Positions 4,566 to 35,307 of a stretch of DNA of 64,000 nt are shown in pieces (position 1 is the stretch's first letter; every line of letters starts with the position of its first letter). The notes beneath the pieces were generated by a model. That model did no database searches, had not been told where the DNA came from, and saw only the letters and a program-made list of their open reading frames with translations. The position numbers and the translations under genes were made by a program. Origin of the DNA: an uncultured Pseudomonadota bacterium (GTDB taxonomy: Bacteria > Myxococcota_A > Polyangia > Fen-1088); assembly GCA_963779495.1 (NCBI GenBank), contig CAVZYM010000005.1, forward strand, positions 528,241 to 592,240, in the 5' to 3' direction.

Positions 4566-4568
4566 GCG

Positions 4569-4814
4569 GTGTTCGTGTTGCCGTTCTTGTTGGGTGATCG
4601 ATTGGTGGCCCGCGTCGACCTGAAGAGCGACCGCAAGAAGGACCGCTTGCAGGTCATCGCGGTCCATGCCGAGGCCGGCATCCCGCTGCACGCCGCCGAA
4701 GCGCTCGCGGGCGAGCTTCGTTTGCTAGCCGACTGGTTGGGCCTCCCGAACATCGCCCTAGGCCGACCCGGGAACTTCGCAAAGGAGCTCGCTCGTCAGT
4801 TTCCGCGGACCTGA
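4569..4814 (+). pseudogene. Orphan 3' fragment (81 codons) of a ycaQ/alkZ-like glycosylase gene; ~92% nt identical to 8746..8981
   Basis: Protein [39 protein letters not shown]...ARQFPRT is near-identical to the C-terminus of the 7782..8981 product. No upstream coding continuation. Confidence 0.75.
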
Positions 4815-4940
4815 GCTGGTCGCGCTGGCTGCGGCTCTCGTGTGGCGTGTCAGGACGTCCTCACGCTCGGCGAAGGCGCCGAACCGGCCCTAGGCCATCG
4901 TGTAGACAAACTCCCCGAGCGGGCCCGCGAGCCCCCGGAC

Positions 4941-5819: not shown

Positions 5820-5867
5820 GGCGCGAGGATAGCTGCCACGTCGGCCTTGGGAACGATTACCGCTCTT

Positions 5868-15089: not shown

Positions 15090-16196
15090 TCAGTCTGGCA
15101 ATCGGCCGGCCGCGAAGGCCGCTTCGATGTCGTCCCAGCGGTGAATGAAGTCGAACGCCTCCGATGACTCGCGGGGCAGGTGGCCCAGATACGCGAAGCG
15201 TTTGGTCGGAGGTAGTCCAGCTATCGACATCCTTGCGCCGGACGCGATCGGTTTGAGCCGCGGGAGATCCTTTGCCGTGGGCACGTCGCTCCGAGACCAC
15301 TCGAGGATTTCGACGGTCAGGTAAGGAACGGTGACATCACCCTCACGGAGCGTGCTGATCCCGCATATCGCCAGAGGCACGTAGCGTCCGGAGTCGCGTT
15401 TGAAGGCGACGACATCGCCAACCCACCAGCCCAATCCGTACATCGTGGGAAACAGCTCATCCGCCCCGAGCCACGAGCTTCCAATGACCTTGCGGTCGTC
15501 ATCGAGCACCGCGGGGACGGGCAAAACACCGAGACGCCGCAGGCGTGCCCTGGGGTACTGCCCCGGGCCATAGACCCCGAACGCGACCTGCGGATGTTCG
15601 CGAAACGTCGGTTCGATTTTCGCGGTTTTGAATCGCTTGATCGTCCGGCGCGACGGAACATCGGCCAGCTCGGCAACCGGTGGCACGGAATCGCTCACGA
15701 AATCAAATACCCGGACGCTGGGTGCGAGGCTGGCACCGGCGTTCTTGCACATGCCGCAAACCTGGAAGAAGGCGAAGCGACCATCCAGCAGCCGCCAGGC
15801 GTAGACCTCGCCCACCTTCATCGGTGTGACTGCGGCCCGCGGAACCTTCATCGGAACGGGCGGTGGCGGCTCCCGTTCCAGCTGGGCGCGGAGCTTGAGC
15901 AGAACCACCGCACGCGCCCGCTGATCCTTGGCGCTGGCCTCTGTCCAGCGTTTGAGGTCGGTTCCGTCCGAAACTATCCTCAAAGCCTGAGCGCGAACCC
16001 GGGGAACGATCCGGCCGCTGCGCCACTGCAGATCCGCCAGCACGAGTGTGACGACTGGGTCGTCCGAACCGTAGTCGTTGACGAAGCTCTCCGTCAGATC
16101 TTCGGCCGTGCGGCCCCAGCGCAGGCCCGTGTTCCAGTCCGAACGAATGTCACACGCGGTGTCGTCGGAATAGAGCCCGGTGCCCCAGGTTCCCAT
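15090..16196 (-). CDS. DUF4259 domain-containing protein
   Basis: N-terminus MGTWGTGLYSDDTACDIRSDW matches the DUF4259 signature (MGxWGTGxFDND). No other recognisable domains. Confidence 0.6.
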   Translation of the reverse strand: MGTWGTGLYSDDTACDIRSDWNTGLRWGRTAEDLTESFVNDYGSDDPVVTLVLADLQWRSGRIVPRVRAQALRIVSDGTDLKRWTEASAKDQRARAVVLLKLRAQLEREPPPPVPMKVPRAAVTPMKVGEVYAWRLLDGRFAFFQVCGMCKNAGASLAPSVRVFDFVSDSVPPVAELADVPSRRTIKRFKTAKIEPTFREHPQVAFGVYGPGQYPRARLRRLGVLPVPAVLDDDRKVIGSSWLGADELFPTMYGLGWWVGDVVAFKRDSGRYVPLAICGISTLREGDVTVPYLTVEILEWSRSDVPTAKDLPRLKPIASGARMSIAGLPPTKRFAYLGHLPRESSEAFDFIHRWDDIEAAFAAGRLPD

Positions 16197-17355: not shown

Positions 17356-18756
17356 CTAGAGCGTGTAGAGGAAGGCGACGAGGTCGCGCTTCTCCGCCTC
17401 CGTGAGGCGGGTCTCCATCACCAGGTTGAAGAACTCGACGGTGTCGTCGAGCGTGAGGAGTCGCCCGTCGTGCAGGTAGGGGGGCGAGTCCTTGATGCCG
17501 CGGAGCGGGAAGGTCTTGATCGGCCCGTCGGCGGTCGCGGTCATGCCGTTGATGTTGACCGGCTTGTAGAAACGCTCGGCGCGCAGGTTGTGCATCAGGT
17601 TGTCGGTGTAATAAGGGGGCGCGTGGCAGACGCCGCACTTGGCCTTGCCGAAGAACAGCGCCTCTCCGCGCATCTCTGGCTCTGCAGCGCGCTTCGGGTG
17701 CAGGCGGCCGTCGACGGTCAGCTTGGGCGCGGGCGGAAAGTCGAGCAGCTCCTGCAGCTCCGCCATGAAGTGGACCTGGCTGCCGCGCTCGAGGATGTTG
17801 ACGCCCTTCTTGGTGGCGATCACCGGATCGCCGTCGAAGTAGGCGGCGCGCTGCTCGAATTCGGTGAAGTCCTCGACGCTCTTCAGCGCGCGCTGCGAGC
17901 CGAACAGGCGCTGGATGTTCACGCCGCGCAGGCTCGGGGTATCGATCCGGTGGCGGAACGCCTGGGGGCGGGTATCGCCCGCCAGGTGGGTGGCGCCGTT
18001 GGTGTGGCCGTTGGCGTGGCAATCGAAGCAGGTGACGCCGCGGTGGGGCAGCGTCGAGCGCCGGTCCTCGGTGACGTTGAACTGCTGCTGCGGAAACGGC
18101 GTGAGCAGCAGCCGGAACCCCTCCAGCTGCTTCGGGTTCAAGAGCCCGTCGAACAGCGCAAAGAAGTTCATCAGCGTCACCAGCTGGCCGCGCGACACGT
18201 CGCCGAGGTCGGGGCGCGTGGTCAGGAAGATCGGCGGCGGAAACTCGGGCAGGAATGGATCGGGGATGTCGAAGTCGAGATCGAAGCGGGTCAGGTCCCG
18301 CCCCTCCTGCTTCTTGATCTCCTTGATGTGGAATTCGGGGAACAGCATCCCCCCCGCGGGATGGTTGGGATGGGGGAGCGGGTAGAAACCGGCGGGGAAG
18401 AGGTTCTTGTCGCGGATCTCCTCCGGGGTCATCGCCGCGAGCGAATCCCAGGTCACCCCTTTGGGAAGGCGCGCGCGCACGCCGGCCTGAACCGCCTTGC
18501 CCCGGAACATCTTGACCGCCTTGGCGGGACGGTTGGCAAGGTCGTAACGCTCGGCCAGCAAGGCATGCTGCCGCTTCATGATCGCCGCCTTCTCGGCGGT
18601 CAGTCGTTTGTGGAGGGTGGCGAAGTCCTCCGTCGGGACGACCGGCATGTAGCTGGTGGGCGGTGGCTTCTTCTCGTCCGAACGGGCAACGCCGGCGAGC
18701 AGCACCGTCGCGACGGACAACGAAGCAGCGACAACCAGCGCGCGCGTGAAGGTCAT
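17356..18756 (-). CDS. Di-heme cytochrome c peroxidase (CCP/MauG family)
   Basis: Signal peptide and two CxxCH heme motifs (CFDCHANGH; CGVCHAPPYY). ~465 aa. Confidence 0.85.
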   Translation of the reverse strand: MTFTRALVVAASLSVATVLLAGVARSDEKKPPPTSYMPVVPTEDFATLHKRLTAEKAAIMKRQHALLAERYDLANRPAKAVKMFRGKAVQAGVRARLPKGVTWDSLAAMTPEEIRDKNLFPAGFYPLPHPNHPAGGMLFPEFHIKEIKKQEGRDLTRFDLDFDIPDPFLPEFPPPIFLTTRPDLGDVSRGQLVTLMNFFALFDGLLNPKQLEGFRLLLTPFPQQQFNVTEDRRSTLPHRGVTCFDCHANGHTNGATHLAGDTRPQAFRHRIDTPSLRGVNIQRLFGSQRALKSVEDFTEFEQRAAYFDGDPVIATKKGVNILERGSQVHFMAELQELLDFPPAPKLTVDGRLHPKRAAEPEMRGEALFFGKAKCGVCHAPPYYTDNLMHNLRAERFYKPVNINGMTATADGPIKTFPLRGIKDSPPYLHDGRLLTLDDTVEFFNLVMETRLTEAEKRDLVAFLYTL

Positions 18757-18930
18757 GGTCCGGCCTTAGATGAGGTCGGACGTCCGCCGGTCAAGACGGG
18801 GACTCCCCTGGCCGGCAGGGGAAGCCAGGGCGATGCAATAAGGGCCTTCACGGGGAGCCGATGCGGCCCTCGTTTAGCGGCGATTGCCCGCTGACAGCGG
18901 CTGAACTTCCCCGGAACCGGGGAGCTCCGA

Positions 18931-19005
18931 GCGTATGTTCACAATTTATTGCGCTCGTTCACGATAATAGGCAGATTGTTCATACATGACCACAGTTGTT
19001 CACGA
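18931..19005 (+). promoter_or_regulatory. Phased array of four TGTTCA(C/T) direct repeats (18937, 18957, 18978, 18998; ~20.5-bp spacing) spanning the ietA-like start codon
   Basis: Read from sequence in the AT-rich 225-bp region upstream of 18986. GTTCACGAT 9-mer occurs twice. Two-helical-turn spacing suggests a transcription-factor operator array. Confidence 0.5.
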
Positions 19006-20134
19006 TCAGCTGCCACATGTTCTTGAACTCCTGAAAATAGTCGAAGGAGCGGTGAACGCAGATCGGGAAAAGGTCACTTCTTACACGGAGTTACTTGTCT
19101 CCAAGCTCGCTGCCGAGGGTCACAAGAACGTCGCCGATCGTCTTCAACGAGCCCTGCAGAGCTCTAAGACGAAGATGCTTGAACTCAGCCGACCGGGAAC
19201 CCGAGTTCCGGTCGACCAAGAGTCGCGCCTGGCTCTGGCGGATGAAGAACTCGTCCGACCAGGGGACGCGGTTGTCTTTGTATCTCCGGACGTCACAGCG
19301 TCGATCAGCGAATTCATTCGGTTCGTGGTCGCGTCCGATCGCCTCATCAGCCACGGCGTCGGCGTGTCGCCATCGATGCTTCTCTATGGCCCACCGGGCT
19401 GTGGAAAGACCGAACTGGCAAAGTACGTTGCGTCGCAACTGGGGTTGCCCCTGCTTACGGCACGATCCGATTCGCTAATCTCGTCGTTCCTGGGCAGCAC
19501 TGCCAAGAACCTCCGAGTCCTCTTCGAGCACGCGATGGCTCGCCCATGCGTTCTATTCCTCGACGAGTTCGACGCTCTCGCGAAGGCGCGCGATGACAAG
19601 AACGAACTCGGGGAGTTGAAGCGCGTTGTCGTCAGCCTTCTGCAGAACATCGACGCACTTGCATCAAAGACCGTGCTGCTAGCTGCAACCAACCACGACC
19701 ATCTACTGGACCCTGCGATCTGGCGCAGGTTCGCTTTCCGCCTAGAGATCGGCCTTCCAGAGCTTCAAGCAAGACGCGCCATGTTTCAACGCTTCTGCGG
19801 TGATCTAGCTGCAGGAAGCGAGGAGGACCTCGACCTATTCGCAGGCATTTCTGCGACGCTGAGCGGAGCTGACATTAAACAGGTCGCGGAAGACAGCAAA
19901 CGGAGTGCGATCCTGTCAGACAGGAATCGCATCGACACCGCCGAGGTCGTACGCCGCATTCTGCGTTACCGATTGCCCGACCTCGAGAAGGAGTTGGTCC
20001 CGCTGGAAGTGAAGGTAGCGGCTGCAAGGCGCTTGGACCCTGCTCTTTTGACCTACCGGCGCCTGTCAGAGGTATTCGGCATTTCTCTGGGACGTCTCTC
20101 CAAGCTTCTGCGAGAAGAGGTGGCGAATGGCTGA
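18986..20134 (+). CDS. AAA+ ATPase (IetA-like defence ATPase)
   Basis: Walker A GPPGCGKTELAK, Walker B VLFLDEFDAL, sensor-1 LLAATNHD, Arg finger WRRF. Low GC (~50-55%). Stop overlaps the start of the downstream subtilase by 8 nt (ATGGCTGA). Confidence 0.85.
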   Translation: MTTVVHDQLPHVLELLKIVEGAVNADREKVTSYTELLVSKLAAEGHKNVADRLQRALQSSKTKMLELSRPGTRVPVDQESRLALADEELVRPGDAVVFVSPDVTASISEFIRFVVASDRLISHGVGVSPSMLLYGPPGCGKTELAKYVASQLGLPLLTARSDSLISSFLGSTAKNLRVLFEHAMARPCVLFLDEFDALAKARDDKNELGELKRVVVSLLQNIDALASKTVLLAATNHDHLLDPAIWRRFAFRLEIGLPELQARRAMFQRFCGDLAAGSEEDLDLFAGISATLSGADIKQVAEDSKRSAILSDRNRIDTAEVVRRILRYRLPDLEKELVPLEVKVAAARRLDPALLTYRRLSEVFGISLGRLSKLLREEVANG

Positions 20135-22394
20135 GACAGAGCGCCGATTGCCAATCAAAGTCGTTCTAAACAGAGACGGAGATTGGTTCAGCCCGGACGG
20201 TGGCGGCGGTGGTCGCAAGATGTTCGGCGAGGTAACGCCCGACGTTCGGAGGAGTCTCTCTGAGCAATTGGCCAGCACCGCGAGGATTCTTCACATCGAC
20301 GAGACGGCACTACCCGCAGTCGGCCGGGTTGTCCTAAAACGTGACGCCCTCGCAAAGTCTCATCGGCCTGCAAAACTGTTTCGCGACACCTGTCCGATCA
20401 TCGGCGTCGGCCACCTCGGCGAGTTGTTTATCAGCCTGCGCCCCGGTCGGATTGAAGAGCTCATCAAGAGGATAGACGCCGACACCACCAAGGATGGTCA
20501 GGCAGATATCTCAACGATCGAGCAGATCCTTCCGCATGATCCGAACATCGCTACGGCGCCCGAGACCGTCGAAGAGTTGGCCGCTCGCGTAGACCGCTCG
20601 AGTGCCGCTCTCAAGGTCAAGCTGTTTCGGCATAACGACCCCAGTCTCGACAAGAGGATCCAGAACGCCTTCCTCGCCGAGCTCAGAACGCTCGACTTGG
20701 CTCCGCCCGAACCTATCGAGTACGCGAAGACACTGCGCATCTATCGCATCAGAAAGCCAACCGGCGAGGCCGTGCGGAGACTCGCACGCTTTGTAGGCTC
20801 CCAGAGCGTTTCGACATTCCCCATCTATAGATCGGTTAGGACGTCCGCTACTCGCGTACGGGCAGCGGAGGTGTCCGACTTCCCGAGTCCCGACCCCAGG
20901 CGAGACTACCCCGTGGTGGGACTCATCGACAGCGGAGTGAACGCTGGGGACGCTCTTCTTGCTCCTTGGATCGTGGCTCACGATGTCAACGTTCATCCTT
21001 CCGAGCAGGACCTTGAACATGGCAGCTTCGTCGCTGGTCTGTTGGTACATGGTCGGTTGCTGAATCAGAACGATCCGACTTTTCCCGACGGCCCCTGCAA
21101 GATCGTAGACGTCGTTGCTGTTCCGAAAGGGGGCATCTCGGAGGACCAGCTACTAACGATCATCGAAGACGCCGTCCCGAAGTATCCAAAGGCACGGGTC
21201 TGGAATCTCTCTGTGAACAGCATCGGTGGGTTGTGTCTAAATGACGCCTTCTCAGACTTCGCGGTAGCGCTCGACGAGATCCAGGCGAAATACGGCGTGC
21301 GGTTCGTGGTATCGGCAGGCAACTACGTGACGCCACCTCTGCGGGGTTGGCCAGCCGAGGACCTAGGCGAGGCTGATCGGATTTGCGCGCCGGCCGATTC
21401 CGTCCATGCGATCACCGTCGGCTCGATAGCCCATATCCATCGCCCAAATTCCAGAGTGAAGGCTGGTGAACCCTCTCCTTTCTCCCGTCGTGGTCCGGGC
21501 CCGGTTTATCTTCCCAAACCCGACCTTTCTCACTATGGCGGTAACTGCGACGCGGCACTCGGCTGCGTGCAGACAGGCGTGCTCTCCCTCGATGCCAATG
21601 GGGACGTGGCGGAAAGCATCGGGACAAGTTTTGCGACACCGCTCGTCACGTCGCTTTATGCCCACGTCCACGCTGAACTCACGGGGAAAGAGCCCCCGTC
21701 ACCAAGTCTGGTGAAGGCCCTGCTGATTCATTCAGCCTTGCTGTCGAAAGGCGCCCTGTCAGCAGTGGACATGAAGTACCGCGGTTTTGGGGTTCCCGGG
21801 GGGGTGCTGGAAGTCCTGTCGTGCACCAAGTCTGTGGCCACGCTGATCTTCGAACCGGACCTAATTTCAGGACTCGAATTCGAGAAGCTAGGCTTCCCCA
21901 TTCCCACCAGCCTCAGAGACAAGAACGGGAAAGTTCGGGGAGAGTTCGCCATCACGCTCGTGTACGACCCTCCATGCGACGCCTTGGGTGGGGCGGAGTA
22001 CTGCCGCTCGAACGTCGAGGTCTCGCTTGGCAGCTACGATGTGGGGACAGACGGCAAGCGACACCACAAGCGCCAAGTCCCTCCAGAGCCGGAAGATGTG
22101 AACAAGTTGTTCGAGCACGAGCTCCTCGAGCACGGGTTCAAATGGTCTCCAGTGAAGGTCTACCGCCGCTCGATCAGGCGCGGAATCCGCGGCGATACGT
22201 GGAGGCTCCATGTTTCGCTCCAGCATCGAAGCGGCTTTCAGACGCAGATTCCTCAGCGAATGGCGCTCATCGTGACGCTCGCCGACCCCAACGGGACAGC
22301 GCCTGTGTACGACGAAATCGTTACCCAGATGCATGCCAGCGGTTGGCTGACCCAAGATCTACAGGTCAAGAACAGAGTCCGGCTAGGAGTCTAG
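20127..22394 (+). CDS. Subtilisin-like serine peptidase, S8 family (IetS-like) with ~280-aa N-terminal region of unknown function
   Basis: Catalytic triad motifs in canonical order: VVGLIDSGV (Asp), HGSFVAGLL (His), SAGNY (oxyanion Asn), GTSFATPLV (Ser). 755 aa. Translationally coupled to the ATPase. Confidence 0.85.
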   Translation: MAETERRLPIKVVLNRDGDWFSPDGGGGGRKMFGEVTPDVRRSLSEQLASTARILHIDETALPAVGRVVLKRDALAKSHRPAKLFRDTCPIIGVGHLGELFISLRPGRIEELIKRIDADTTKDGQADISTIEQILPHDPNIATAPETVEELAARVDRSSAALKVKLFRHNDPSLDKRIQNAFLAELRTLDLAPPEPIEYAKTLRIYRIRKPTGEAVRRLARFVGSQSVSTFPIYRSVRTSATRVRAAEVSDFPSPDPRRDYPVVGLIDSGVNAGDALLAPWIVAHDVNVHPSEQDLEHGSFVAGLLVHGRLLNQNDPTFPDGPCKIVDVVAVPKGGISEDQLLTIIEDAVPKYPKARVWNLSVNSIGGLCLNDAFSDFAVALDEIQAKYGVRFVVSAGNYVTPPLRGWPAEDLGEADRICAPADSVHAITVGSIAHIHRPNSRVKAGEPSPFSRRGPGPVYLPKPDLSHYGGNCDAALGCVQTGVLSLDANGDVAESIGTSFATPLVTSLYAHVHAELTGKEPPSPSLVKALLIHSALLSKGALSAVDMKYRGFGVPGGVLEVLSCTKSVATLIFEPDLISGLEFEKLGFPIPTSLRDKNGKVRGEFAITLVYDPPCDALGGAEYCRSNVEVSLGSYDVGTDGKRHHKRQVPPEPEDVNKLFEHELLEHGFKWSPVKVYRRSIRRGIRGDTWRLHVSLQHRSGFQTQIPQRMALIVTLADPNGTAPVYDEIVTQMHASGWLTQDLQVKNRVRLGV

Positions 22395-22540
22395 TCTGAC
22401 GGGCGACACCGACGAAGGAGCGTCAGTTCTCATGGATTGCCGACGTCCCACAGGCCACAGTGCCTCGGTCGAAGCGTTGAGGGTCGTCGGCTAAGACCCG
22501 AAGAAGCCCGTTCAATGGCTCGAACTGGCGGGGAGACGAT

Positions 22541-24091
22541 ATGACGACGGAGGCGACAGACATTCACCGGCTGAACTCTGAGCAGATCCGTCTGTACCAG
22601 ATAATGGAAACCGATCCGGTGCGAGCCTTGACGGAGGCGAAGGGGCTTCATGACGACGGCCCGGGCGGTATGTGGACGCAGCTGAGGGGATGTGTCCTCG
22701 CAGAAGCCGGAGGCGCATCGAATGACAAGAGGCCTATCGAAGAAGCAATCGCGATATTCCGGGCGGCCTTGGCGAGAAAGCCCGACGATCCCATGGTCGC
22801 GTACAACTTGGCGAATGCGCTCGGAACACTTGCCAGATTGGACAAGACGGACCTTCCCAAGCGTTACCTGCAGACCTCAGCGTTGAGGCTGGAGAGTCGG
22901 GCCCTCTATGGTTCAGCCGCGAAGGCTCTCCGGAAGAAGCACGCACGGACTGCTACGCAATGCCTAACGAACGTAGGAAGCGCGCTCGACTACGCATTTC
23001 GTTGGATCGAGGCGTTCGAAGCCTACACCGACGCGCTGGCAGTCTACCCAGAGAATGGCGTTGCGTCGGGCGCTGCTGCCCAGGTGCTTTTCAGAGTGTC
23101 GCAAACAGGCCGGCAGCGCGGCTCAGAACATCTGCGCGCTGCGGCGCTGCGCCTGGCCTGGCACTCGCAACAGAATGTCGACACGGTAAGGGCGTTCGCA
23201 GGCGAAGGCGCCGTTCAAGCATTCCTTCGCTTGCCGAGCCGAGCAACAACACCACCACGCCCAATCAAAGCAGGGCTTTCAACGTACCAGCGTTTCGTTT
23301 CGCACCATCGGCTCGCGCTCTCGCCCGTGGTCGAGGGGCTGAAGTCTTTGCGCCGATGGGATGACATCCAAGTGACCGGCATACATGCGCACGGTAACGA
23401 AGGTCCCCATATGCCGCCATTGTTCGCGATGTTCAACCTGTTGAAAGGGGATTACTTGCTTGCGCGGGAACTACTATTCGAGGGCGTCCAGGAGAAACAT
23501 CGGGATACGGGCTGGTACGCCGACACGCTCGACTATGCTCTTTATGGCAGGAAGACATCTTGCCTTGTTCTCGCGCAGCGTTCGGCACTTGACTTGCTCG
23601 ATCGAATCGCTGTTGCGCTGAACGACTACCTGGACGTTGGCGTTTCACCGAATGACGTCCACTTCGTGCGCTTCTGGTTCGAGCCAAAGGCATCCAATTG
23701 GCGTAAGCCGATCTATGACGAAATCGATGCAGGGAATCCCGCCCTCATCGCCCTAGCGGAGATCGCTTCCGACCTCGGAAGCGTCGCGGTTGGCGAAGCC
23801 AAAGCTATTCCCTTGCTTTACCGACACCGTCATCTACGGAATTCGGGAACTCACCGCTTCACAACGCTTCACGATGTCGAGATCGGCGCCCATCGCCCCT
23901 CGCCCGCAATCGAGCACATGCGGCTGGATGACTTTCAACAGGCGGCCATCGATACACTGAAACTCGCCAGAGCAGCACTCTTCTATCTGGTCGAGGCAGT
24001 CGACTATCGTGAACTCCGTCTGGGGCACAGCGCGGGGGTGATGGGATCGCTACCCGTCGTGGGTCATCACCGCATTCGGGGACGCCGATAG
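22541..24091 (+). CDS. TPR-like repeat protein with C-terminal domain carrying an R-x4-H (HEPN-like) motif; function unknown
   Basis: N-terminal ~230 aa helical TPR-like repeats (AIAIFRAALARKPDDPMVAYNLANALG...). C-terminal LLYRHRHLRNSGTHRF contains RNSGTH (Rx4H) ~75 aa from the C-terminus in a predicted helical region. Low GC. 147-bp gap after the subtilase. Confidence 0.55.
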   Translation: MTTEATDIHRLNSEQIRLYQIMETDPVRALTEAKGLHDDGPGGMWTQLRGCVLAEAGGASNDKRPIEEAIAIFRAALARKPDDPMVAYNLANALGTLARLDKTDLPKRYLQTSALRLESRALYGSAAKALRKKHARTATQCLTNVGSALDYAFRWIEAFEAYTDALAVYPENGVASGAAAQVLFRVSQTGRQRGSEHLRAAALRLAWHSQQNVDTVRAFAGEGAVQAFLRLPSRATTPPRPIKAGLSTYQRFVSHHRLALSPVVEGLKSLRRWDDIQVTGIHAHGNEGPHMPPLFAMFNLLKGDYLLARELLFEGVQEKHRDTGWYADTLDYALYGRKTSCLVLAQRSALDLLDRIAVALNDYLDVGVSPNDVHFVRFWFEPKASNWRKPIYDEIDAGNPALIALAEIASDLGSVAVGEAKAIPLLYRHRHLRNSGTHRFTTLHDVEIGAHRPSPAIEHMRLDDFQQAAIDTLKLARAALFYLVEAVDYRELRLGHSAGVMGSLPVVGHHRIRGRR

Positions 24092-24140
24092 ACCGATCGA
24101 TGGCGTCATACTGCGCGCTGATCTCGTCGACTTACATATT

Positions 24141-26561
24141 TTGGGCTGGGCAGCACAACGCGATGACCCCCAGAATGGAAGGCACACGATGACTAACGCT
24201 GACAGTCTCCATCTGCCGCTAAACGTCGCGCGTGCGGTCATTCTCGGCGACGTCCAATTTCTCCGATTCGAGCAGTTCGCCAACGATCTCGTTTCAAAGA
24301 TCGAGGGAGATCGGCCGGTACTTTCGACCTCTCTCACCTATGATCGCGGCAGGGACGGAAAGACCATCGGCCCCGGACCCCGTGTCTACATCTGCTCATC
24401 GCTGAACGACATACCCGACGACAAGGCACTAGCCGATATCGACAAGATCGCCGCCTCTAAGGCGCCGGTCCAGCGGATCTATTTCTGCAGCTCCCAGAAA
24501 TTGACAGAGCATGCGGGAGATAGAATCGCTGCCCTCCTGCGAGCCAAGCTTGGTGACGATGTCTCTGTCGAGTTTCTTGGGGCATACCACTTGGCGGACT
24601 TCGCGGTCCGTTTCCCTGAGGTTGCCCACAAGTCCTACTCGGCCGAAATTGCCGACATCGTTCAGGCTTTCAAGCCATCTCACCAAGTAGATGAAGCTTC
24701 GCGCCTTGCGTTGGAACTCGCTCTCTGTACGGTTGGTCACGAGGATTCAGCCGCAATTCGGACAAGCGCATACGTTGCGTCACTGCGGAGCGTCCTCCTC
24801 GATGGAGTCCCGCGCAACGTCGCCGAATGCGCCCGCGATCTGGCCGCGCGGCTCAAGCTTGGGCGCAGTCTGCCGGGCACCGCAGTCAAGCTGTACTTGG
24901 ATACACTGGAGCAACAGCAAGATGTCACGGTTGTCAGCGATCGCTATGGCCTGACGGAAGCTGGTCGAGCCGCCACCGCCGCAGCGACAGGAGCGGCAGC
25001 CGAGGCGCTCATGAGGGGGCGTCGTGAAGTACGAGCTCAGATTGAACTCGAGCTGGGCTTCACTCTTGAGGACGGCCAATTTGCGACGATGTGGCGAACC
25101 CTACAGGACAAGCTTGCCTTGCTCTTCTACTCGCGAGGACGCGAGATGGTCGAAGGGGTAGCTGCTCTGCTGGGACAGAACGCCTCTTCCAGTGGCGCCG
25201 CGGGTGGACCCACGACACCGACGGCTGCCGAAGGGATGCATGGGCCGTTCTTCGCCAGAGCACTCGGTGACGCCGTAGCTGCAACTTGCTCTAGCCAAGA
25301 ACTAGCCGAACAGGTGCAGGTTGCTCTGTCGGATATTTTCTCCGAAGGAACGGGCGCGGCATTCGAGTGGTTGGTCGAAGTGTGTGCCGGCTTCGTGACT
25401 ATCTGCTCGCTCGGTCTTGAGGCTTCTTCGGGTCAAAAGATCCGCGATGCCGTCTCTCGAATCGCGCTCATCTATGATACCGACGTCCTTCTCTCGCTGC
25501 TGGGCGAAGCCGAACCAGATCACGCCGCCGTCGTAGAGATGACCCGACGATGGCGAGAACTCGGCGGCCAACTTCTCCTCGCCGACCCGGTCTTGCGGGA
25601 GACGGCATACCACGCGTGGATTTCCGAGAGAGATTTCAGGGAGGTGGACTCATGGTTGCCCGGATCTGACTTGGATCGATTGCGCTTTATTAAAAACGTC
25701 TTCGTGCGGTCGTTCGCGACACTGATCTCTCGTCAGCGGGCGCGAAGGAACCAGTGGCACACCTATATCTCTCAGTTCCGTGGAAGTTCGGACCACGATG
25801 CTAGGCGCCTGCACGCGCATGTGTCTTCCGAAAGTAAGGCAGGCGCGCTCCCTCGCATTCTCGAACACGAGTCGGGGTGGGAGCGTGATGTTTGGGACGC
25901 GTGTGAAGAACGCGCAGACCGCGGCGCTGCTGGCGACCGAGACCGGAAGATTAAAACCGACAAGGCCAGACGCGATGCAGAGCTCTACGTTTCGATGGTC
26001 CGGTATTCGGAAACCCTCCGGGATACCGAACTTGAGGGTCACTGCTTTCTCGTATCCTCGGCGCACCGCCTTGCGGACCTCGAGGCAGAGTTCCATCCTG
26101 GTGAACGGGCGCGCGTCCTATCGATCGGCGCTGTACTTCACATGTTGGCGTTGGTCCCGGGTGTCTCCGTTGGGTTAACGGCCCTCGGAAGTCTTCTCTT
26201 TGATGGAAGCTTCCACAAAGGCATGTCCGATCTCGGCATGGTTCTTCGCCGCGTCTTGAGGGATTCCGATGGATTCAGCATGCCTTGGGCCAGCCGGACG
26301 ACCCTCGAACGGGACATGCGAGCGCGGCTGGTCGCTCGCGCTGCTGAAGGAGGAGGTACCCACGCGGAGAAGGCCAAAAGAGCCAAAGAGATGGAGCATC
26401 AGGTCGTTAGCGGCGAAAAACCTGAAGCGACCGCGATGCTCATAAGGGAAGCCCTCGACCAAGTCGGCGCTGATACACGGATGGAGCGACAGCTCGCGGA
26501 GGCACATCGGCGCATCGCCGAACTTGAGGCAGCGGCCGCCCGTAAAACCAGAGAGAGCTAG
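24141..26561 (+). CDS. Large (806 aa) uncharacterised protein with a central PIN-like nuclease fold signature
   Basis: Segment SRIALIYDTDVLLSLLGE...LLLADPVLRETAYHAW resembles the PIN strand-1 Asp and the following Glu. No P-loop. Coiled-coil and charged C-terminus. Low GC. 50-bp gap after the TPR gene. Confidence 0.5.
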   Translation: MGWAAQRDDPQNGRHTMTNADSLHLPLNVARAVILGDVQFLRFEQFANDLVSKIEGDRPVLSTSLTYDRGRDGKTIGPGPRVYICSSLNDIPDDKALADIDKIAASKAPVQRIYFCSSQKLTEHAGDRIAALLRAKLGDDVSVEFLGAYHLADFAVRFPEVAHKSYSAEIADIVQAFKPSHQVDEASRLALELALCTVGHEDSAAIRTSAYVASLRSVLLDGVPRNVAECARDLAARLKLGRSLPGTAVKLYLDTLEQQQDVTVVSDRYGLTEAGRAATAAATGAAAEALMRGRREVRAQIELELGFTLEDGQFATMWRTLQDKLALLFYSRGREMVEGVAALLGQNASSSGAAGGPTTPTAAEGMHGPFFARALGDAVAATCSSQELAEQVQVALSDIFSEGTGAAFEWLVEVCAGFVTICSLGLEASSGQKIRDAVSRIALIYDTDVLLSLLGEAEPDHAAVVEMTRRWRELGGQLLLADPVLRETAYHAWISERDFREVDSWLPGSDLDRLRFIKNVFVRSFATLISRQRARRNQWHTYISQFRGSSDHDARRLHAHVSSESKAGALPRILEHESGWERDVWDACEERADRGAAGDRDRKIKTDKARRDAELYVSMVRYSETLRDTELEGHCFLVSSAHRLADLEAEFHPGERARVLSIGAVLHMLALVPGVSVGLTALGSLLFDGSFHKGMSDLGMVLRRVLRDSDGFSMPWASRTTLERDMRARLVARAAEGGGTHAEKAKRAKEMEHQVVSGEKPEATAMLIREALDQVGADTRMERQLAEAHRRIAELEAAAARKTRES

Positions 26562-26714
26562 AGTCTGCGGACAAAGACTTTGGCCCCCGTCAAGTTCGAC
26601 GGTTACCGACGTCCTACGAAATCGCACTCAGGACCGACGGGGTCCATCCGTCGCCACAGTGCCTGCCTTTTCTTCTCCCGAGCCGGTTTGAAACGGGCGG
26701 CTAGACGATCGCGC

Positions 26715-29700
26715 TTACTCGACGCGCGTCGTCTCGTCGATGACGCTGATGAGCTCGTTCGCGGCGCTCCGGATGGGATCGCCCTTGGGGAGGTCCTGGG
26801 CGGCGCGCTTCGCGAACATGATGGCGCGATCGCGCTCCCCTTTGCGGTACGCGATGCGGGCCTGCCGGAGGAAGGCGTCCGGCAGGGTGATGGGGCCGAC
26901 GACGTGGTTGGCGACGATGAGCCGCAGGACCTTCAAGGCGAGGTCGACGTCCCCGGCGGCCTCGGCGCGTTCGACCAGCACGGCCATGATCTCCCCGTTC
27001 TTCTTGTCGGCGTCGACGGCCCGCGCGAGCGCCGCCAGCTCCCCCTTCTGATCGCCGGCCTGCGCGGCGAGGCGCGCCAGGCGCGCGTGGAGCAGCGCGA
27101 GCGCCGGGGAGGCCATGCCCTTGTGGGCGGCGACGAACGGCTTGAGCAGCTCGGCCGCCTCGGCGAGGGAGCCCATGAGGGCGTGGGCGTCCGACGTCAG
27201 CAACGCCGTTTCCTCGTCGCGCGGGCGAATGGCCACGGCCTCGGTGAGGGCCGCGAGGGCCATCGGGCCGTCGCCGAGCTCCAGCGAGAGCCCGCCCGCG
27301 CGGCGGAGCAGCTGGAAGCGCACGGTCTCGTCCTCCGAGCGGCTCGCGGTCTCGTACAGCAGGGCCGCCAGCTTGCGCTGTTCGCCCGCCCCTTCGTAGA
27401 GGTGCCCGAGCAGATCGATCAGCGCCTGCTGGCCGGGGTCGCCGGCGACGAGCTGCTCGATGGCCGCCATCGCGTCGGGGGTCCGATTCGCGCGCCCCGC
27501 CAGCTCGACCAGCCGGTTGGCCGCGGCGACCTGCGCCTCGCCGCTCGTGAGGCGCATCAGGTGGTAGGTCGCGTCGACGGCGCCCGCGACGTCGCCCTCC
27601 GCCTCCGCGAGGTCGGCGGCCAGCTGCATCGTGTCGGCGTCAGGTTCGCTGCTCTCGAGCACGTCTCCGACGAGCTCGCGCGCGGTCACGACGTCGCCCC
27701 GGCGGCGGGCCAGGTCGGCCAGCTCCAGCGTCACGGCGCGCAGCTCGCCAGGCGAGCCGGCCTTCGCGGCCGCCGCGCGCCACAGCTGAAGTGCGCCCGC
27801 CAGCGTCTCGGCGACGGCGTCGGGCGAGAGGTCGTGAACGCCCCGCAGCACGGCGACGGCGGCGCGGTGATCTCCGCGCGCGCTTTCCAGCTCCGCCAGC
27901 AGGAGCGACAGCGACAGCCGCCGCGCCGGATCCGCTGCGGCGGCGCCCGCCGGCCCCGCGAGGGCGGCGGTCACCTCGGCCACGGCGGCGCTGACGTCAC
28001 CCACGGTGACCAGCGCGCGCGCGAGGCGTTCGACGACCTCCGCGTTCTCGGGCGCGCGCGACCGGGCGAGCTGAAGCAGCGTCGTGGCGCCCGCCGGATC
28101 CGCGAGCTCCGTCTGTCGAAGCGTCGCCGCCTCGAGGAGCCAGGCGAGGGCATCCGCCGCGTCCGTCTCACGAACGGCGCGGTCCGCAAGCAGCTCGGCG
28201 AGCAACGACCAGGACTGCCTGGCCCGATAGAGGCGTTCGAGCTCCTGCGCGATCCCAGCGTCGGCGGGCGCCAGCGCGCGCCCCCGTTCGAGCACGCGCC
28301 GGACGGCCGGCGCGTCGCCGAGCTCGGTCCAGATGGCGGCGATCTCGCGGACCAATCCGGCCGCCTCCGGCCCCGTCTCCAGGGCGAGGAGCTCCTCCAT
28401 GCGCTGGGCGTGCTCGGGCGTCGCTTGCTTCCCCTGCCCTTGCAGCGCGAGGAGCTTCCTGAGCAGATCTCCCCGCCCGCGGGCGATGCCCAGCGCCCGC
28501 TCGTAAAGGGCAGCGGCGCGTTCGGGCTCGGCGCCTTCGAGCCGGGCGCCCAGCTGCAGCGCCGCCTCCGCCACCCCGTTCTGATCGCCGGCCTCGCAGG
28601 CCGCCTCGAACATCTGCTCGAGCAGATCGACGATGTCGCCCGACGCGCCGGTGCGCTCGTAATAGCCCGCCAGCAAGGCGAGGGCCTCGGGGTGCCGCCG
28701 CTCCTCGAGCAGCACGTCGCGCAGGATGTCGGCGGCCGCGGCGTCGCGGTCGTCGGCGGCCAGGAGAACGCGGGCGCGAGACAGACGGAGCTGATTGCGC
28801 TGCGCCACGTCGGGCAGCATCGGCAGCGTCTCTCCCACGACGCGCTCCAACCCGACGCGATCCTGCAGGGCGATGTAGTGCTCGAGCAACGGACGCCAGA
28901 TGGTCTCATCGCCCGGCGAGGCCGACCGCAGCCGTTCGAGGAGCGAGGCGCCCAGGCGGTGATTGCTCGCCCGCGCGGCCCGGCCCGCGAGATCGCGCGC
29001 CAGCGCCGTGAAACGCTCGGGCTCGACGACCTCCGTCTCGGCCGCGCGTTCGAGCGCGCGGGCCGCGCCCTCGAGAATCGCCCGCCGCCCGCCGGCGGGC
29101 AATCAGCTCCAGCGAGGCCCAGGCGGCGTCGCGCCGCCCCGTGGGCTCCTTCACCGCGACCTCCGCCAGCCTCAGCAGCAGAGGTTCGACACGCTCGGAC
29201 TCGCCGAGGGCGACGGCCAGGTCCACCGCCTCGCGGGCCTCGGCCACCGTCACCGAAGGCGTCGCGGCGCGACGTTCGAGATAGTCGAGCAACAGGCGCT
29301 CGTCTCCCGACTTGCGCGCAATCCGTTCGTAGAGAGGGAGGACCTTGACCTGCTCTGTCTGCGGCAGGCCGGCGGCCTCCACCAGCGCCGAGGCCCGATC
29401 GAGGTCGGGGCTCTTCTCCAGGGCGGCGGACAGCTTCGCCACGCCGGCGTCGCGCGTGGTCTCGCGCGGAAGCTCGATGGCCGCGGCCCGGTAGAGCGCC
29501 TCCGCCGCGTCGTCGGCCGTCGCCGCCTCGGCCGCCAGCTCCTCCAGCCGCGCGACGATGCGATCGCACTCGGCGTCGTCGCCGCGCTTGCCGGCCAGCC
29601 GGGCCAGGCCCGAGAGGACGACGAACGACCGGGGCTCGACCTCCTCGGCGCGGCGATGGAGCTCCAGCGCGCGCGCGTCATCCTCGAAGTCGCGCTCGGC

Positions 29701-32700
29701 GATCTCGGCGACCCGCAGCAACAGCGCCGCCGCGACGCCCGTTTCGGCCTTGCGGCGCCGCCGTTCGACCAGCGCCAGCAGCCGATCGGCGAGCGCCTCG
29801 GTCTTCCCCGCCTCGCGTCCCAGCGTGAGCAGAGGCTCGTGGAACGGCACGCGCTCGGGCGCGCCTTCGACGGCCAGGAGCTGCGCCTCGAAGGCTTCGG
29901 CCAGACGACCCTGGCCGCGCAAGCTCTCCGCCAGCTCGGCGTGGACGTCGGCCTGCGCAAGCGTCCCGGCGGTCCGGGCGAGGCGCTTTTCGAAAAGGCG
30001 CCCGAGGACGTCGTGGTCACCGCGCGCGAGCAGCCCTTGCTGGAGACGGCGCGCCTCCTCCGGGTCCTCGATGGCCGCCGCCAGGGCAGACTCGAGCAGC
30101 TCGTCGGCCTCGCCGCCGTCGCCGCGCTTGCGTGCCAGGCCAAACAGCCGCAGCAGAATCTCCGTCGCCGCCAAGGCTGTCGGTCCGCCTCCGTCGACCG
30201 CATCGCCCTCCGCCCGCCGCACGAGCAGCGCGCGGTAGGCGCGCTCGGCCTGCGCGACCGCGCCGGCTTCCTCGGCCACCTCGGCGAGCTGACGCAAGAT
30301 CCCCAGGTTCGAACCGTCCATCGACGACGCCAGCTCCAGCTGTTCGAGCGCGAGAGGAAGGTCCCCCTCCGCGCGCGCCAGCTCGCCGAGGCGTTGGTGG
30401 AGCGCGGCGCGCTTGCGGCTCTTGCGCCAGCCGGCCTGCTCGACGAGGGTGAGCAGCTCTTTCCGGGCGTCCACGCGGCGGTCGGACTGGGCCAAGCCGT
30501 CGGCCAACGCCAGGCGCAGCCCCTCGTCGCGCGGCAACAGGCGCACGGTGCGTTCCAGGACGGGGACCGCACGCGCCAGCATCCCCAGGCGGGTGTAGGT
30601 CTCGGCCGCCTCGCGGGCGCGGGTCACAATCAGCGCCTCGTCGTCGGTGTGCTCGCATCCGTCGGCCAGCACGCGGGCCAGCGGCTCCCAGGCCGCCGCC
30701 TCGCGGTAGAGACCGGCCAGGCGCTCGCGCAGGGCGTCGGCCCGCGGCTCGTCCGCCAGCGCGCGCTCCAGGCAAGCGACGGCGCGGTGGCGCTGGCCGG
30801 CCGCGAGATGAGCGGTCGCCAGCGTGCTGGCAATCTCCGCGCGCGCAGACCCTTCGGTCATGGCGAGGCGTCGTTCGAGCCAGCGCGCCGCCGCGGTCGC
30901 CTCGCCGGCGTCCAGGGCCAGGCGCCCCAGCGCGTCGAACGCCTCGGTGGTGGCATCGAGCTCGGCGACCTGCTCCCAGGCCGCCGCGGCCCGGGGCCGA
31001 TCGCCCAGCGTCTTCTCGGCCAGGCGCGCCAGCTCCGACCACAGCGCGGCCGAGGGGGACGGCTGGCCCTCCTCGGCCAGAATCCGCGCCTGCTGCTCGT
31101 AGACACCGGCCAGCTCCGCCGGCTTGCCCTTCCCCAGCAGGACCTCCGCCAGCCGCTGCACGGTCGCGGCGTGCCCTGGCCGTTCGGCGAGGTTCGCGCG
31201 CAGGACGTCGGGGGCGCTGCTCCGCTGCTCGAGCAGCCCGCCCACCCGAACGATCTCGAGCCGCAGCGCCAGCCGGCGTTCACTGCCCGTCGTCGCTTCC
31301 AGCTCGGCCAGCCGCAGGGACGCGGCATCGGCGAAGCGGCGCTCGCTCTCGTAGAGGCGCGCCAAGGCCTCGCGCGCGACGTCGTCGGCCGGCGCCTCCT
31401 CGTGCAGCGAGCGCCAAATCCGGACGGCGCCCGCCACGTCGGCGAGAGGGCCTTCGGTCAGCTCCGCCGCGCGGCGCAGCCAGCCCCGGCGGGTCTCGGT
31501 GGCGGCGGGCAGGCGCGCGCCCTCGAGCAGCAACGCGGTCGCGCGGCGCAGGCGGTCGGGCCCGCCCGCGGCGACGTGCAGACGAACGCTCTCGTCGATC
31601 GCGTGCGTCGCGGCCTCGACGGCCGCGCCCGCGGCGGGTCCGCCCAGGTGCGCCAGGCGCAGGGCGCGCTCGGCGAGACGCCCCAGGAAATCCAGGGCCA
31701 ACCGCTCGTCGGACCTGGCCATCGCCACGCCCGCCGCCTCCCTCAAGAACTCGAGGTCGTTCGGTTGCTCGACCGAGAGCCGCTCGAGCGTTTCGAGCAG
31801 CCCGTCGGCGCCACGCGCGCGCTGAAGCTCGGCACGCTGCCTCAGCGTCGGCACGTGGCCCGGCTCGGCGGAGAGCGCCCGGGCCAGCGCCGCGTCGGCC
31901 GCCGCTGCGTCCTGGCAGTCCATCAGAGTGGCGGCGACGCGCGCGTGAAGCTCGCGGCGCGCGCCCGGTTCCAGGTCGCCCGCCTGATCGACGGCGCGGG
32001 CCAGGGCGGCCGCGGCCGCCGGCAGCTTCCCGGCCTCGCGCGACAGCGACTCGAAGAGGGGAAGCAGCACGGTCTCGCGCGTCGACGGTGACACCGCGGC
32101 GTCGACGATCAGGCCGGCGGCCGCCGTCAGATCGCCCATACGGACGGCGACCCCCAGCAGGCGGCGTCGCGGCCCGAGGCGTTCCGGCGTGATCGCGAGC
32201 GCGGCTTCGTAGCAGGCGCGCGCGCCCACCATGTCGGCCACGTGCTCCTCGAGCAACGTGCCGCGGCGCTCATGAAGGTGGGCGAGCGGCAGCGGCGGTA
32301 GACCGCCGACGTCGATGGCCGCCGCCAGCGCGTCGGCCGCGCGGGCATGGCCGCCCGTCGCCTCGGCCAACCGCAGGACCTCCCGCTCGAGAGCGAGGCT
32401 CCGGCCCGCGAGGGGCAGCGCCTGGCACAACCACTCGAAGGCACGCGCGCGATCGGACGCCCGCTCCTCCGCCAGCGCGGCCGACTCTTCCAGCAGCCGC
32501 GCGCGCGCGTCCGCCGACTGCAGCGCCGCCAGCCGGTGCGGGACCAGATCCAGCAGCAGCTGCCAGGCGTCCGTCCGCTCCGCCGCCCGGTAGAGCGGCT
32601 CTGACGCCAACGGGGCCAGGCTCGCATCGGCCAGCAGGGCCGTCAGGCCTGCCCGCGCGCCCTCGTGGGCGGGCTCGACCTCCAGCGCGCGCCCGTACCA

Positions 32701-34613
32701 CACGATCGCCCCGCGGGCGTCGTCCAGCCGTTCGCGCAGCGTGTCGCCGAGGCGCGCGAGACGGTCGGCGTGCACGCGCCGGTCCACACCCGCGCGCTGC
32801 CCGAGAAGCTCGCCCAGCTCCGCGAAGCGCCCGCTCTCCGCGTACAGACCGACGAGCGCGTCCACGCTCTCCGCGTCCTCGCCGAACCGGGTCGCGATCT
32901 CGCGCCAGGCCTCCACGGCGCACGGCAGGTCCCGCGTCCGGGTGTGGGCCAGGGTCGCGATCTCGACGAGGTCCGCACGCACCTGGTGCGCGCCGGGCGA
33001 GGAGCCGACCCGCCTGCGCAGCAAATCAATCAGCGCCGGCCAGCGTTCGCCCTCGATCAGCAGCGTGCGAATCGCCGCCAGCGCCTCGGCGTCGGCCGGA
33101 TCGACGGCGAGACGGCCCTGCCACGAAGCGATCGCGCGGTCGAGGTCGCCGCGCTCGCGCGCCAGCTTCGCCACCAGCGCCCAGACGATCCGCTTGTCCG
33201 CGGTCTTGGGCTCGAGGGCGGCCAACCGTTCGAGGACGTCCAGCCGCTTCTCCGTCTCGTCCAGCTCGTGGTGGAGCTCCTCCAGCCGGCGCAGCGCCTC
33301 GAGCTTGATCTCCAGGGAAGCGGCAGCTTCGGCCGCCGCCGCGGCGAACAGGGCAGCCGCCTCGGCCTTGTGCCCAAGCTGGCGGTCCTCGACCCGCGCG
33401 GCGCGCATGATCAGCTCGACACGTCGTTCGTCCGCCGCGCACGCGCGCGCCGCGATCGCCAGCCCCCGGGCCAGGCCGGCCCGATCTCCGCTCAGCTCGG
33501 CGAGCTGGCGCAGGCGGTCCTCAATCTCGCGGTCCTCGGGCGCCAGGGCCACCAGGGCGACGTACTGCTCCAGCGCGCCGGCAAGATCGCCCAGGGAGCG
33601 AAGCCGCTCACCGCACTCTCGCCGCAGCGCCTGGTGACGCTCCCCCGTCGAGAAACCGATCGCCACCGCCAGCAGCTCGGGCATGTGCGTCGCGCGCCCG
33701 GCCGCGTCCAGACGGCCGCGAAGCGCGTCCAGCGCGGTCAGGCGCGTCTCGGCCGACCCCCGCTGGTCGACGAAGACCTGTTCCAGCCGCTCGGCGAGGG
33801 CCGCGTCCACCGCGGGCCCGCCCAGCAAGGGGCGGAGCACCGCCAGGGCGTCATCTGGTTGGCCCAGCTCCGTGTGCAGCGTCCCGGCCAGACGCAAGCG
33901 TTGCTCGCGGGCCTCTTCGCCGGTGAGCCCCTCGAGGCGAAGGCGCCAGACGGCGCAGAGCTCGCTCCAGCGCCGATCGCGCTCCAGCAGCCGCTCCAGC
34001 GAGGACGCGACCTGGGCGTCCGTGGGGCGCATGCGGAACAACGTGTCGAGGTACCCGATGGCACGCCCGGGATCGCGCGTGAAGTCCTTCGCGATCCGGG
34101 CCGCCTCCCCCAGCAGCTCGGCGCGCCGTTCGTCCCCCCGCCCGGCCGCGAGGCGGGCATCGTAGCTGTCGAGGACGTCACCCCAGCGCTCGGCCATCGT
34201 CAGCGCGACGACCAGCGGCCGAAAGGCCCAGTCGGAATCGGGCGCCGCCGAGAGCACCGTCCGCAGGACGTCGATCGACTCGGGCGCGTTCTCGCCGAAG
34301 CAGTCCGCCGCGAACCGGGCGGCGCGGCGCGCCAGGATCTCGTGCAGGGGCCTGGGCAGATCTCTCCCCAGCTGGGCCCGATAAAACTCCAGCAGGCCGC
34401 GCGCCTGCGCCTCGTTGGCCGCGACCGTCTCCTCCAGGCGGCTCCAGGGCGCCTCGTTGCCGGGCTGCCGGATCGCGTCGTTCAGCGCCTCGTCGAACGC
34501 CTCGTCGACCACCGTCGCTTGGGCCGCGGCCGGGGCCTGAACCCGCGCCTCGACCTGACCTGACCCCGACCCGCGCAACTCGATCCGACCCGTGGCACGC
34601 TTTGCAGCCATCA
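26715..34613 (-). CDS. Giant (~2,630 aa) TPR/alpha-solenoid repeat protein; single gene split by an apparent frameshift near 29100
   Basis: ORFs 28906..35259 and 26715..29102 overlap in adjacent frames within a GC run (cgccggcgggcggcgggcg). Both are Ala/Leu/Arg/Glu-rich helical repeats with recurring GDxxxA...LxRA TPR-like periodicity. True start is ATGATG at 34613 (GGAG SD), because upstream codons are antisense to a real plus-strand lipoprotein gene. Confidence 0.7.
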
Positions 34614-34705
34614 TTTGCTCCTTGGGGAGCCACGGGAATCGGCCGATCCGGCTCAGTCGTTTAGCCCTATCTGTAGATAGGGTCGGTTCCGCTACACTCG
34701 CGCAC

Positions 34706-35251: not shown

Positions 35252-35307
35252 CGCGACATCCGCGTCAGGCGGCGTTCGGTGACGGCGCGTGCGGGCGCCG
35301 TCGCCGA

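Follow-up and report, generated by a model that had tools for sequence, protein, structure and literature searches.

A probable small horizontally acquired defense islet combining a divergent IetAS pair with two predicted nuclease genes in a high-GC bacterial chromosome

Introduction

IetAS, also designated IteAS, has been shown experimentally to act against phages and as a toxin-antitoxin pair, with the protease as the toxin and the ATPase as the antitoxin; its protease activity is required (PMC13069673). Data on IetAS synergy are also available (10.1101/2022.08.21.504612). Another relevant group comprises the fusions of TPR regions with the LA2681-type HEPN domain, which have already been catalogued (Anantharaman et al. 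2013, PMC3710099); no experimental work on the LA2681 family was found in the literature searched. Members of both families are encoded side by side in a four-gene island at positions 18890 to 26714 of a 64,000-nt stretch of DNA from an uncultured bacterium of the GTDB lineage Myxococcota_A, Polyangia, Fen-1088 (GenBank assembly GCA_963779495.1, contig CAVZYM010000005.1, positions 528,241 to 592,240). This whole 64-kb stretch was analyzed and is referred to below as the window. The island is probably a small horizontally acquired defense islet made up of three independent modules arranged head to tail, namely, the ietAS pair, a TPR-HEPN gene (gene 3), and a gene whose family has no name (gene 4).

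The IetAS pair, with which a PADLOC-type annotation resolves half of the locus, and the TPR-HEPN architecture are known parts of this islet, and gene 4 is the only part that is possibly new. Overall, this is a fairly ordinary small defense island, consisting of IetAS and two predicted nuclease genes. A first-pass annotation of the window, made from the sequence alone, had proposed a horizontally acquired defense or conflict island, and that proposal is supported by the composition and codon usage of the region, its matches to IetAS, the genomic contexts of the LA2681 HEPN genes, and a fragment of tRNA-Ala with which the island ends on the right.

Composition and gene layout of the island

The GC content of the 18890-26714 region is 0.592, compared to 0.710 in the remainder of the window, where even the lowest-GC stretch of 7.8 kb is at 0.675. 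In 500-nt sliding windows, the GC content stays at 0.56-0.62 over ∼18.75-26.75 kb, with values of 0.63-0.75 in the left flank and 0.73-0.78 in the right flank; in 2-kb windows, the island forms the deepest trough of the 64 kb. The sharp fall in GC described in the first-pass annotation is thus real, but its figure of 50-58% for the island was slightly too low, with 58-60% being closer. Recalculation confirmed that the codon usage is not uniform either. The GC content at third codon positions (GC3) is 0.645, 0.688, 0.658, and 0.638 in genes 1 to 4, respectively, compared to 0.914 in the left neighbor and 0.920 and 0.893 in the two open reading frames (ORFs) of the right neighbor. This shift of ∼0.25 is uniform across the four genes and stops at the gene borders. 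The features of the island are as follows.

18937..19004, + strand: GTTCAC(A/G) repeat array, four direct repeats spanning the ietA start
18986..20134, + strand: ietA (gene 1), AAA+ ATPase, 382 aa
20127..22394, + strand: ietS (gene 2), S8 subtilase, 755 aa, with an 8-nt overlap with ietA
22541..24091, + strand: gene 3, TPR region and C-terminal LA2681-type HEPN domain, 516 aa, 146-nt gap after ietS
24189..26561, + strand: gene 4, 790 aa, with the ORF open from TTG 24141 (806 aa)
26608..26665, + strand: tRNA-Ala(CGC) 3'-half relic, a degenerate copy at the right end of the island

The four co-directional ORFs and the 8-nt overlap had been recognized at first pass; the gap given there as 147 bp measures 146 nt, and the one given as 50 bp, between genes 3 and 4, comes to 97 nt if gene 4 starts at ATG 24189. 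An independent assembly (L001) covers positions 18750-25672 at 99.97% identity and spans the left junction, so this junction is not peculiar to the present assembly. It must lie within 18757-18936, as the homology to related islands begins only at 18936/18937. This spacer, between the left neighbor and the ietA repeats, is GC-rich and contains the short perfect palindromes GGGGACTCCCC and CCCCGGAACCGGGG. A search of the island for structured RNAs with Rfam produced only two sub-threshold matches, which were judged to be due to chance.

The IetAS pair

Both products of the first two genes match the respective PADLOC profiles: IetA matches PDLC02196 with an E value of 3e-132 (residues 11-378 of 382 aligned with profile positions 3-371 of 374) and IetS matches PDLC02197 with an E value of 6e-255 (residues 5-752 of 755 on profile positions 3-748 of 749), so that the full-length match of IetS includes its noncatalytic N- and C-terminal regions. 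The best NCBIfam matches are the anti-phage ATPase IteA (NF042959) and the peptidase IteS (NF042956). In Pfam, IetA is recognized as AAA (1.3e-31) and IetS as Peptidase_S8 (3.3e-25), and their matches among PHROGs are 3757 (2.5e-103) and 3964 (5e-146), respectively. The Walker A (GPPGCGKT, residues 135-142) and Walker B (VLFLDE, residues 189-194) motifs of IetA are intact, and so are the catalytic residues Asp268, His298, and Ser501 of IetS, with Asn360 as the oxyanion residue. The co-directional arrangement with ietA upstream of ietS recurs in related loci L007, L141, L111, L179, and L181, and 119 plasmids carry IetS-like genes, among them many plasmids of rhizobia or Agrobacterium. Judging from these sequence features, genes 1 and 2 can be assigned as a complete but divergent IetAS pair that belongs to the same family. 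Such an assignment agrees with the AAA+ ATPase and S8 subtilase calls of the first-pass annotation, which were matched by Pfam along with its TPR/Rx4H call for gene 3. The PADLOC run suggested there for all four proteins identified the first two as IetA and IetS and yielded no match for genes 3 and 4.

The start of ietA is embedded in a set of direct repeats. The GTTCAC(A/G) sequence begins at 18937, 18958, 18978, and 18998, i.e., with a spacing of ∼20-21 nt, and the ATG codon of ietA (18986) is inside the array. All four repeats are invariant across three IetAS modules whose DNA identity is no higher than 75-83%, whereas the spacers diverge, and DNA homology with both related islands begins exactly at the array, at 18936/18937. 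The related pattern TGTTCAYR is found 12 times in the window versus 2.5 expected, three times within the array. Conserved elements between the repeats include TTGC and CA-A-T, 17 nt apart; in the window, this is the sequence TTGCGC-17 nt-CAGATT, which ends ∼8 nt before the ietA ATG. Given that no Shine-Dalgarno sequence is visible upstream of ietA and that this promoter-like element ends so close to the start codon, the ietA mRNA may be leaderless. The array itself is a putative operator/promoter that may be autoregulated, in keeping with the reported behavior of IetAS as a toxin-antitoxin pair (PMC13069673). These repeats were also considered as a general feature of IetAS; this was rejected, as distant ietA genes lack the motif in their upstream regions. 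Within the present group, the four GTTCAC repeats represent a conserved candidate operator that is open to tests of autoregulation.

The TPR-HEPN protein

Gene 3 encodes a protein whose residues 289-489 match the Pfam domain HEPN_LA2681 (PF18733) with an E value of 7.2e-44 and a score of 150 bits against the cutoff of 27, covering profile positions 5-203 of 204. Its N-terminal region matches TPR_19 with 25.5 bits, where the cutoff is 25. The Rx4H motif, Arg433-Asn-Ser-Gly-Thr-His438, is present, and Arg433, Thr437, and His438 are invariant in 43 aligned homologs. No models in PADLOC, NCBIfam, or PHROG matched this protein. It can be predicted to be an RNase of the LA2681 family.

Genomic neighborhoods of gene 3 were surveyed in 80 metagenomic loci that hold its homologs. 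These are usually located directly downstream of, and co-directionally with, a defense gene that varies from locus to locus. In 11 loci, this defense gene encodes a SAVED-endonuclease (Cap4-type) effector of the cyclic oligonucleotide-based anti-phage signaling system (CBASS), with a median gap of 37 nt. Type IIG restriction-modification enzymes account for four loci, CBASS exonuclease effectors for three, and IetAS for two (L141 and L111). Among the plasmid-borne homologs, the upstream partner differs every time, and some relatives of gene 3 are found beside integrases. One clade of LA2681 TPR-HEPN genes, with ∼37% identity to gene 3, forms part of a CBASS-type operon whose conserved gene order is CapP/RmrA-like, a 169-aa gene, Cap4 SAVED-endonuclease, TPR-HEPN, and a 436-aa DACNV-sensor protein (metagenomic loci L104, L111, L114, L115, L117, L126, L136, and L169).

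Gene 4 and its family

The start of gene 4 is more likely to be ATG 24189, resulting in a 790-aa product, than TTG 24141 (806 aa), because an independent gene call and 26 homologs begin at the former. The candidacy of gene 4 as a known defense protein was rejected: no match was found in PADLOC, NCBIfam, PHROGs, or Pfam, in the latter case at E ≤ 1. A word-indexed search retrieved 29 relatives, and an exhaustive profile search of 1.84 billion representatives, clustered at 50% identity, placed the size of the family at 343 clusters or more at E ≤ 1e-30. Nearly all of these matches are ∼770-790 aa long and align end to end. No homolog of gene 4 was found on plasmids. The following parts of the protein can be delineated.

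Residues 1-165: restriction-endonuclease-like region (tentative)
Residues ∼187-290: winged helix
Between the winged helix and the PIN-like domain: helical linker
Residues ∼425-640: PIN-like domain
C terminus: coiled coil

In the PIN-like region, Asp430, Asp432, Glu442, Glu471, Asp596, and Ser624 are invariant in the family, and the acidic residues follow the PIN order. The Pfam PIN domain (PF01850) is matched by 9 of the 27 family members (best E value, 3.6e-6), as is PIN_3, also by 9 of 27; gene 4 itself reaches no Pfam PIN threshold, at either E ≤ 0.1 or E ≤ 1. When compared with the Protein Data Bank (PDB), the family profile aligned with VapC26 (E value, 0.037) on the first PIN motif (DtD..EpdH). 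Foldseek matched gene 4 to a bacterial PRORP at a probability of 0.82, and a full-length Foldseek comparison against PDB returned nothing at E ≤ 0.001. At the level of the family, the predicted PIN-like domain is reasonably supported. The "806-aa PIN-like protein" of the first-pass annotation is thus PIN-like as a family and is likelier to be 790 aa long. Modest support is available for a restriction-endonuclease-like fold at the N terminus, which is regarded as tentative. Homology of this N terminus to the Mrr_cat gene that precedes one of the gene 3 relatives was also considered and rejected, as hhalign found nothing.

Related loci and the separation of modules

The closest relatives of all four genes are found together in a single locus, L007, where the products are 93% (IetA), 90% (IetS), 86% (gene 4), and 78% (gene 3) identical to those of the window. 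The order there is IetA-IetS-gene 4-gene 3, i.e., genes 3 and 4 are swapped. DNA alignment of the two islands consists of three separate homology blocks of 82.7, 79.4, and 75.8% identity, which end at gene boundaries and are separated by unrelated spacers. In two other loci, L179 and L180, IetAS is 80% identical at the protein level and both gene 3 and gene 4 are absent; the DNA block shared with the window corresponds to 18936-22384, and a convergent gene begins 7 nt past ietS. In L181, whose IetS is 54% identical, a tyrosine recombinase is followed by IetAS and then by other defense-type genes, again with neither gene 3 nor gene 4.

The two downstream genes are likewise found with other partners. 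A gene 3 relative with 73% identity is located downstream of an Mrr_cat/NA-iREase1 gene in the absence of IetAS, and a gene 4 relative with 78% identity follows a DUF499-like gene in the absence of IetS. The more distant gene 4 relatives, with 30-39% identity, are solitary genes in unrelated neighborhoods, which include a stretch rich in insertion sequences and a viral contig that has the gene between portal/terminase genes and an integrase. The simplest reading of these arrangements is that genes 1 to 4 represent three cassettes that would travel and recombine independently within defense islands. The remark of the first-pass annotation that the genes look like an operon is its weaker point if a single unit is meant, since three modules proved separable in this comparison. 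The permuted copies of the islet provide a clean small example of defense modules shuffled as cassettes that are cut at gene boundaries.

Several of these loci contain additional genes of interest. Directly upstream of IetAS and co-directional with it, L179 encodes (at 4022-6460; 3226-5664 in L180) an 812-aa protein without a Pfam match. This gene was considered as a third position for gene 4 and rejected, since tblastn detected no similarity; it may be yet another cassette. In L141 (2583-10859), which comes from a low-GC organism, the order is tyrosine recombinase, IetA, IetS, HEC-08/DUF3644 (HEPN-type), LA2681 HEPN, and a PLD/DrmC-like nuclease, a second instance of HEPN genes placed behind IetAS. 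The arrangement in L111 is Cap4-HEPN-two genes-IetA-IetS.

The tRNA-Ala relic and the mode of integration

The right end of the island carries a trace of a tRNA gene. The 14-mer AATCGCACTCAGGA at 26620-26633, 57 nt past the stop codon of gene 4, is identical to positions 3044-3057 of the intact tRNA-Ala(CGC) gene at 3014-3087; these are its only two sites in the window, against 0.02 expected. On its 3' side, the 14-mer is followed by CCGACGG and then by a decayed hairpin that resembles the T arm. At the equivalent position, L007 has an exact 30-nt copy of tRNA-Ala positions 3043-3072, and the sequence on its 5' side is not tRNA. Elements that integrate into a tRNA gene usually leave such a scar, a partial 3' half of the tRNA at the end of the island. 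By its sequence, the 26608-26665 segment at this end of the island is best described as a putative att-type scar.

The distance from the intact tRNA-Ala to the island is 15.8 kb, occupied by host-like genes. A single 23-kb element extending from that tRNA (3014-3087) to 26665 was considered and rejected: there is no integrase at the tRNA, the genes in between have host-like GC3, and their functions are ordinary.

Interpretation of the locus

Within the islet, the first module would be a self-contained ietAS cassette, comprising the four-repeat promoter/operator, IetA, and translationally coupled IetS. By analogy with the described systems, IetA would hold the toxic protease IetS in check until infection releases proteolysis, which would stop growth or phage development. 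In the second module, the TPR region of gene 3 could be expected to recognize a trigger and the HEPN Rx4H site to cut RNA. In the third, the winged helix of gene 4 might bind nucleic acid and its PIN-like, perhaps also the endonuclease-like, domain might cleave it. The genomic context suggests an anti-phage role for genes 3 and 4, as well as these trigger and effector functions. The islet was probably brought in by an element that integrates into tRNA-Ala; it has since lost the integrase and the left repeat and kept only the decayed tRNA fragment.

Several observations weigh against this picture of independent modules delivered by integration. No integrase was found in or beside the island, and no transposase inside it, as the first-pass annotation had already reported for the interior of the island. 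Its borders share no direct or inverted repeat of ≥9 nt, and there is no tRNA copy at the left end. No empty site was found in a related genome; none of the 80 loci retrieved with the left flanking protein is syntenic or has island genes. In NCBIfam, the scores of IetA (436 bits) and IetS (734 bits) are below the curated equivalog cutoffs of 510 for IteA and 900 for IteS. Three independent lineages (the window together with L007; L141; and L111) have IetAS close to an LA2681 HEPN gene, which could reflect more than shared residence in islands. The gaps between the island genes show no evident terminator or promoter, which may leave room for co-transcription and functional coupling at this locus. 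Because the sub-cutoff matches run full length, the pair was counted as a divergent IetAS member and not as a different family, and because CBASS is a far more frequent partner of the LA2681 HEPN genes, their recurrence near IetAS is roughly what co-residence in islands predicts.

If all four genes made up one integrated system, IetAS would be its sensor or regulator, with the HEPN RNase and the PIN-like nuclease as downstream effectors activated or released by IetS. The shared direction of the genes, their short gaps, and the lack of an obvious terminator among them could be read in this way, and so could the joint presence of all four genes in two arrangements (the window and L007), the location of IetAS within a few genes of LA2681 HEPN at the distant loci L141 and L111, and the precedent of ietHAS, in which IetAS has recruited an essential third gene (PMC13069673). 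Such a system is nevertheless unlikely, given the 80%-identical IetAS of L179/L180 that lacks both extra genes, the relatives of gene 3 (73%) and gene 4 (78%) that have other partners and no IetAS, and the solitary state of most gene 4 relatives. Further, the gene 3 relatives stand behind many unrelated defense genes, those of CBASS far more often than IetAS, and neither the order of genes 3 and 4 nor the spacers around them are conserved. Slightly less probable still is the possibility that ietAS is mainly an addiction (toxin-antitoxin) module that stabilizes the element or island, with genes 3 and 4 as similar selfish toxins. IetAS was first described as a plasmid-stabilizing toxin-antitoxin pair, according to the summary given in PMC13069673; its IetS-like relatives on 119 plasmids and the operator-like repeats over the ietA start, compatible with autoregulation in the toxin-antitoxin style, point in the same direction. 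Phage protection, however, has been measured for IetAS and its variants (PMC13069673; 10.1101/2022.08.21.504612), related loci have defense genes and integrases as neighbors, not genes for plasmid maintenance, and neither gene 3 nor gene 4 has an evident antitoxin partner. In any case, addiction and defense roles are not mutually exclusive.

The missing integrase, flanking direct repeats, and empty-site comparison, together with indel errors elsewhere in the assembly, would also be compatible with native DNA whose low GC comes from local constraints, or with an assembly chimera. There is very little chance of this being the case: the GC3 shift is uniform and confined by the gene borders, the independent assembly crosses the left junction, related copies sit in unrelated flanks, and the tRNA fragment marks the right end. 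An acquired islet of three modules is thus the preferred reading, in which the locus adds to IetAS a divergent member from a high-GC host. As a more tentative suggestion, for which the chances are somewhat below even, gene 4 could represent an undescribed family of single-gene anti-phage or anti-mobile-element nucleases (∼780 aa, at least 343 clusters) and, separately, LA2681 TPR-HEPN proteins could act promiscuously, as a "tail" effector or a back-up module attached behind many different defense operons, such as those of CBASS, type IIG restriction-modification, and IetAS. The gene 4 and LA2681 TPR-HEPN families are flagged here as two candidates for defense-gene discovery, as leads and not as findings.

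Flanking genes and assembly quality

The left neighbor of the island (17356-18756, − strand) encodes a 466-aa protein with two CxxCH motifs. Its first-pass label, cytochrome c peroxidase, is approximate: the protein has no match in Pfam and shows weak NCBIfam matches of the MauG/MbnH di-haem type. Used as a query against genome contigs, it retrieved 80 loci from many phyla at 69-78% identity, with relatives spanning Myxococcota, Planctomycetota, Legionella, Nitrospira, and Bacteroidota. Such conservation across phyla is unusually high, given that no Pfam model matches this protein.

On the right, the giant TPR gene (26715-35259, − strand) is split into two ORFs, 26715-29102 (795 aa) and 28906-35259 (2117 aa), which lie in different frames and overlap by ∼200 nt (28906-29102). 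The gene thus looks frameshifted, as the first-pass annotation had noted for GC-rich genes of the window. In addition, the independent assembly differs from the window by a 1-nt indel in a run of G at 25430, by which gene 4 is truncated. At least one of the two assemblies is therefore likely to contain indel errors at homopolymers.

Outside the island, a 368-aa gene at 15090-16196 (− strand), without a match in Pfam or NCBIfam, has a GC3 of 0.76 versus ∼0.9 in its neighbors, and two broader stretches, at 4-10 kb and 49-56 kb, have a GC content of 0.65-0.68 versus ∼0.72. These may be other acquired segments.

Comparison with known systems

Islands and integrative elements that target tRNA genes share with the present islet its foreign composition, the partial 3' half of a tRNA at one end, and the location of relatives beside tyrosine recombinases. 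Unlike them, it lacks an integrase, a second copy of the repeat on the left, and an intact tRNA next to it. Among the PIN nucleases, such as VapC toxins and the PRORP/HARP-type proteins, gene 4 has its counterparts in the conserved acidic residues that follow the PIN order but differs from them in its size (790 aa), in having several domains, among which the PIN-like one is inserted, and in having no evident antitoxin partner. Its N terminus can tentatively be likened to the Mrr/FokI-type restriction-endonuclease-fold effector domains found at the N terminus of Avs4 and of type ISP enzymes. Gene 3 shows no material difference from the LA2681 TPR-HEPN proteins described previously (PMC3710099; PF18733), with which it shares the domain fusion, the HEPN family, and the Rx4H motif.

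The ietHAS system (Liu-DS4), which combines IetAS with an essential SNF2 helicase (PMC13069673), is a precedent for an IetAS pair with an added gene. In contrast, the island encodes no helicase, and its extra genes code for HEPN and PIN-like proteins that are dispensable neighbors in close relatives. The closest counterpart remains IetAS (IteAS) itself, a family known on phages and plasmids, whose present member resides in a high-GC chromosome. The two-gene architecture with the ATPase first and the intact catalytic residues are common to both, whereas the four GTTCAC repeats across the start codon, an array specific to this lineage, and the two predicted nuclease genes stacked behind the pair set the present member apart.

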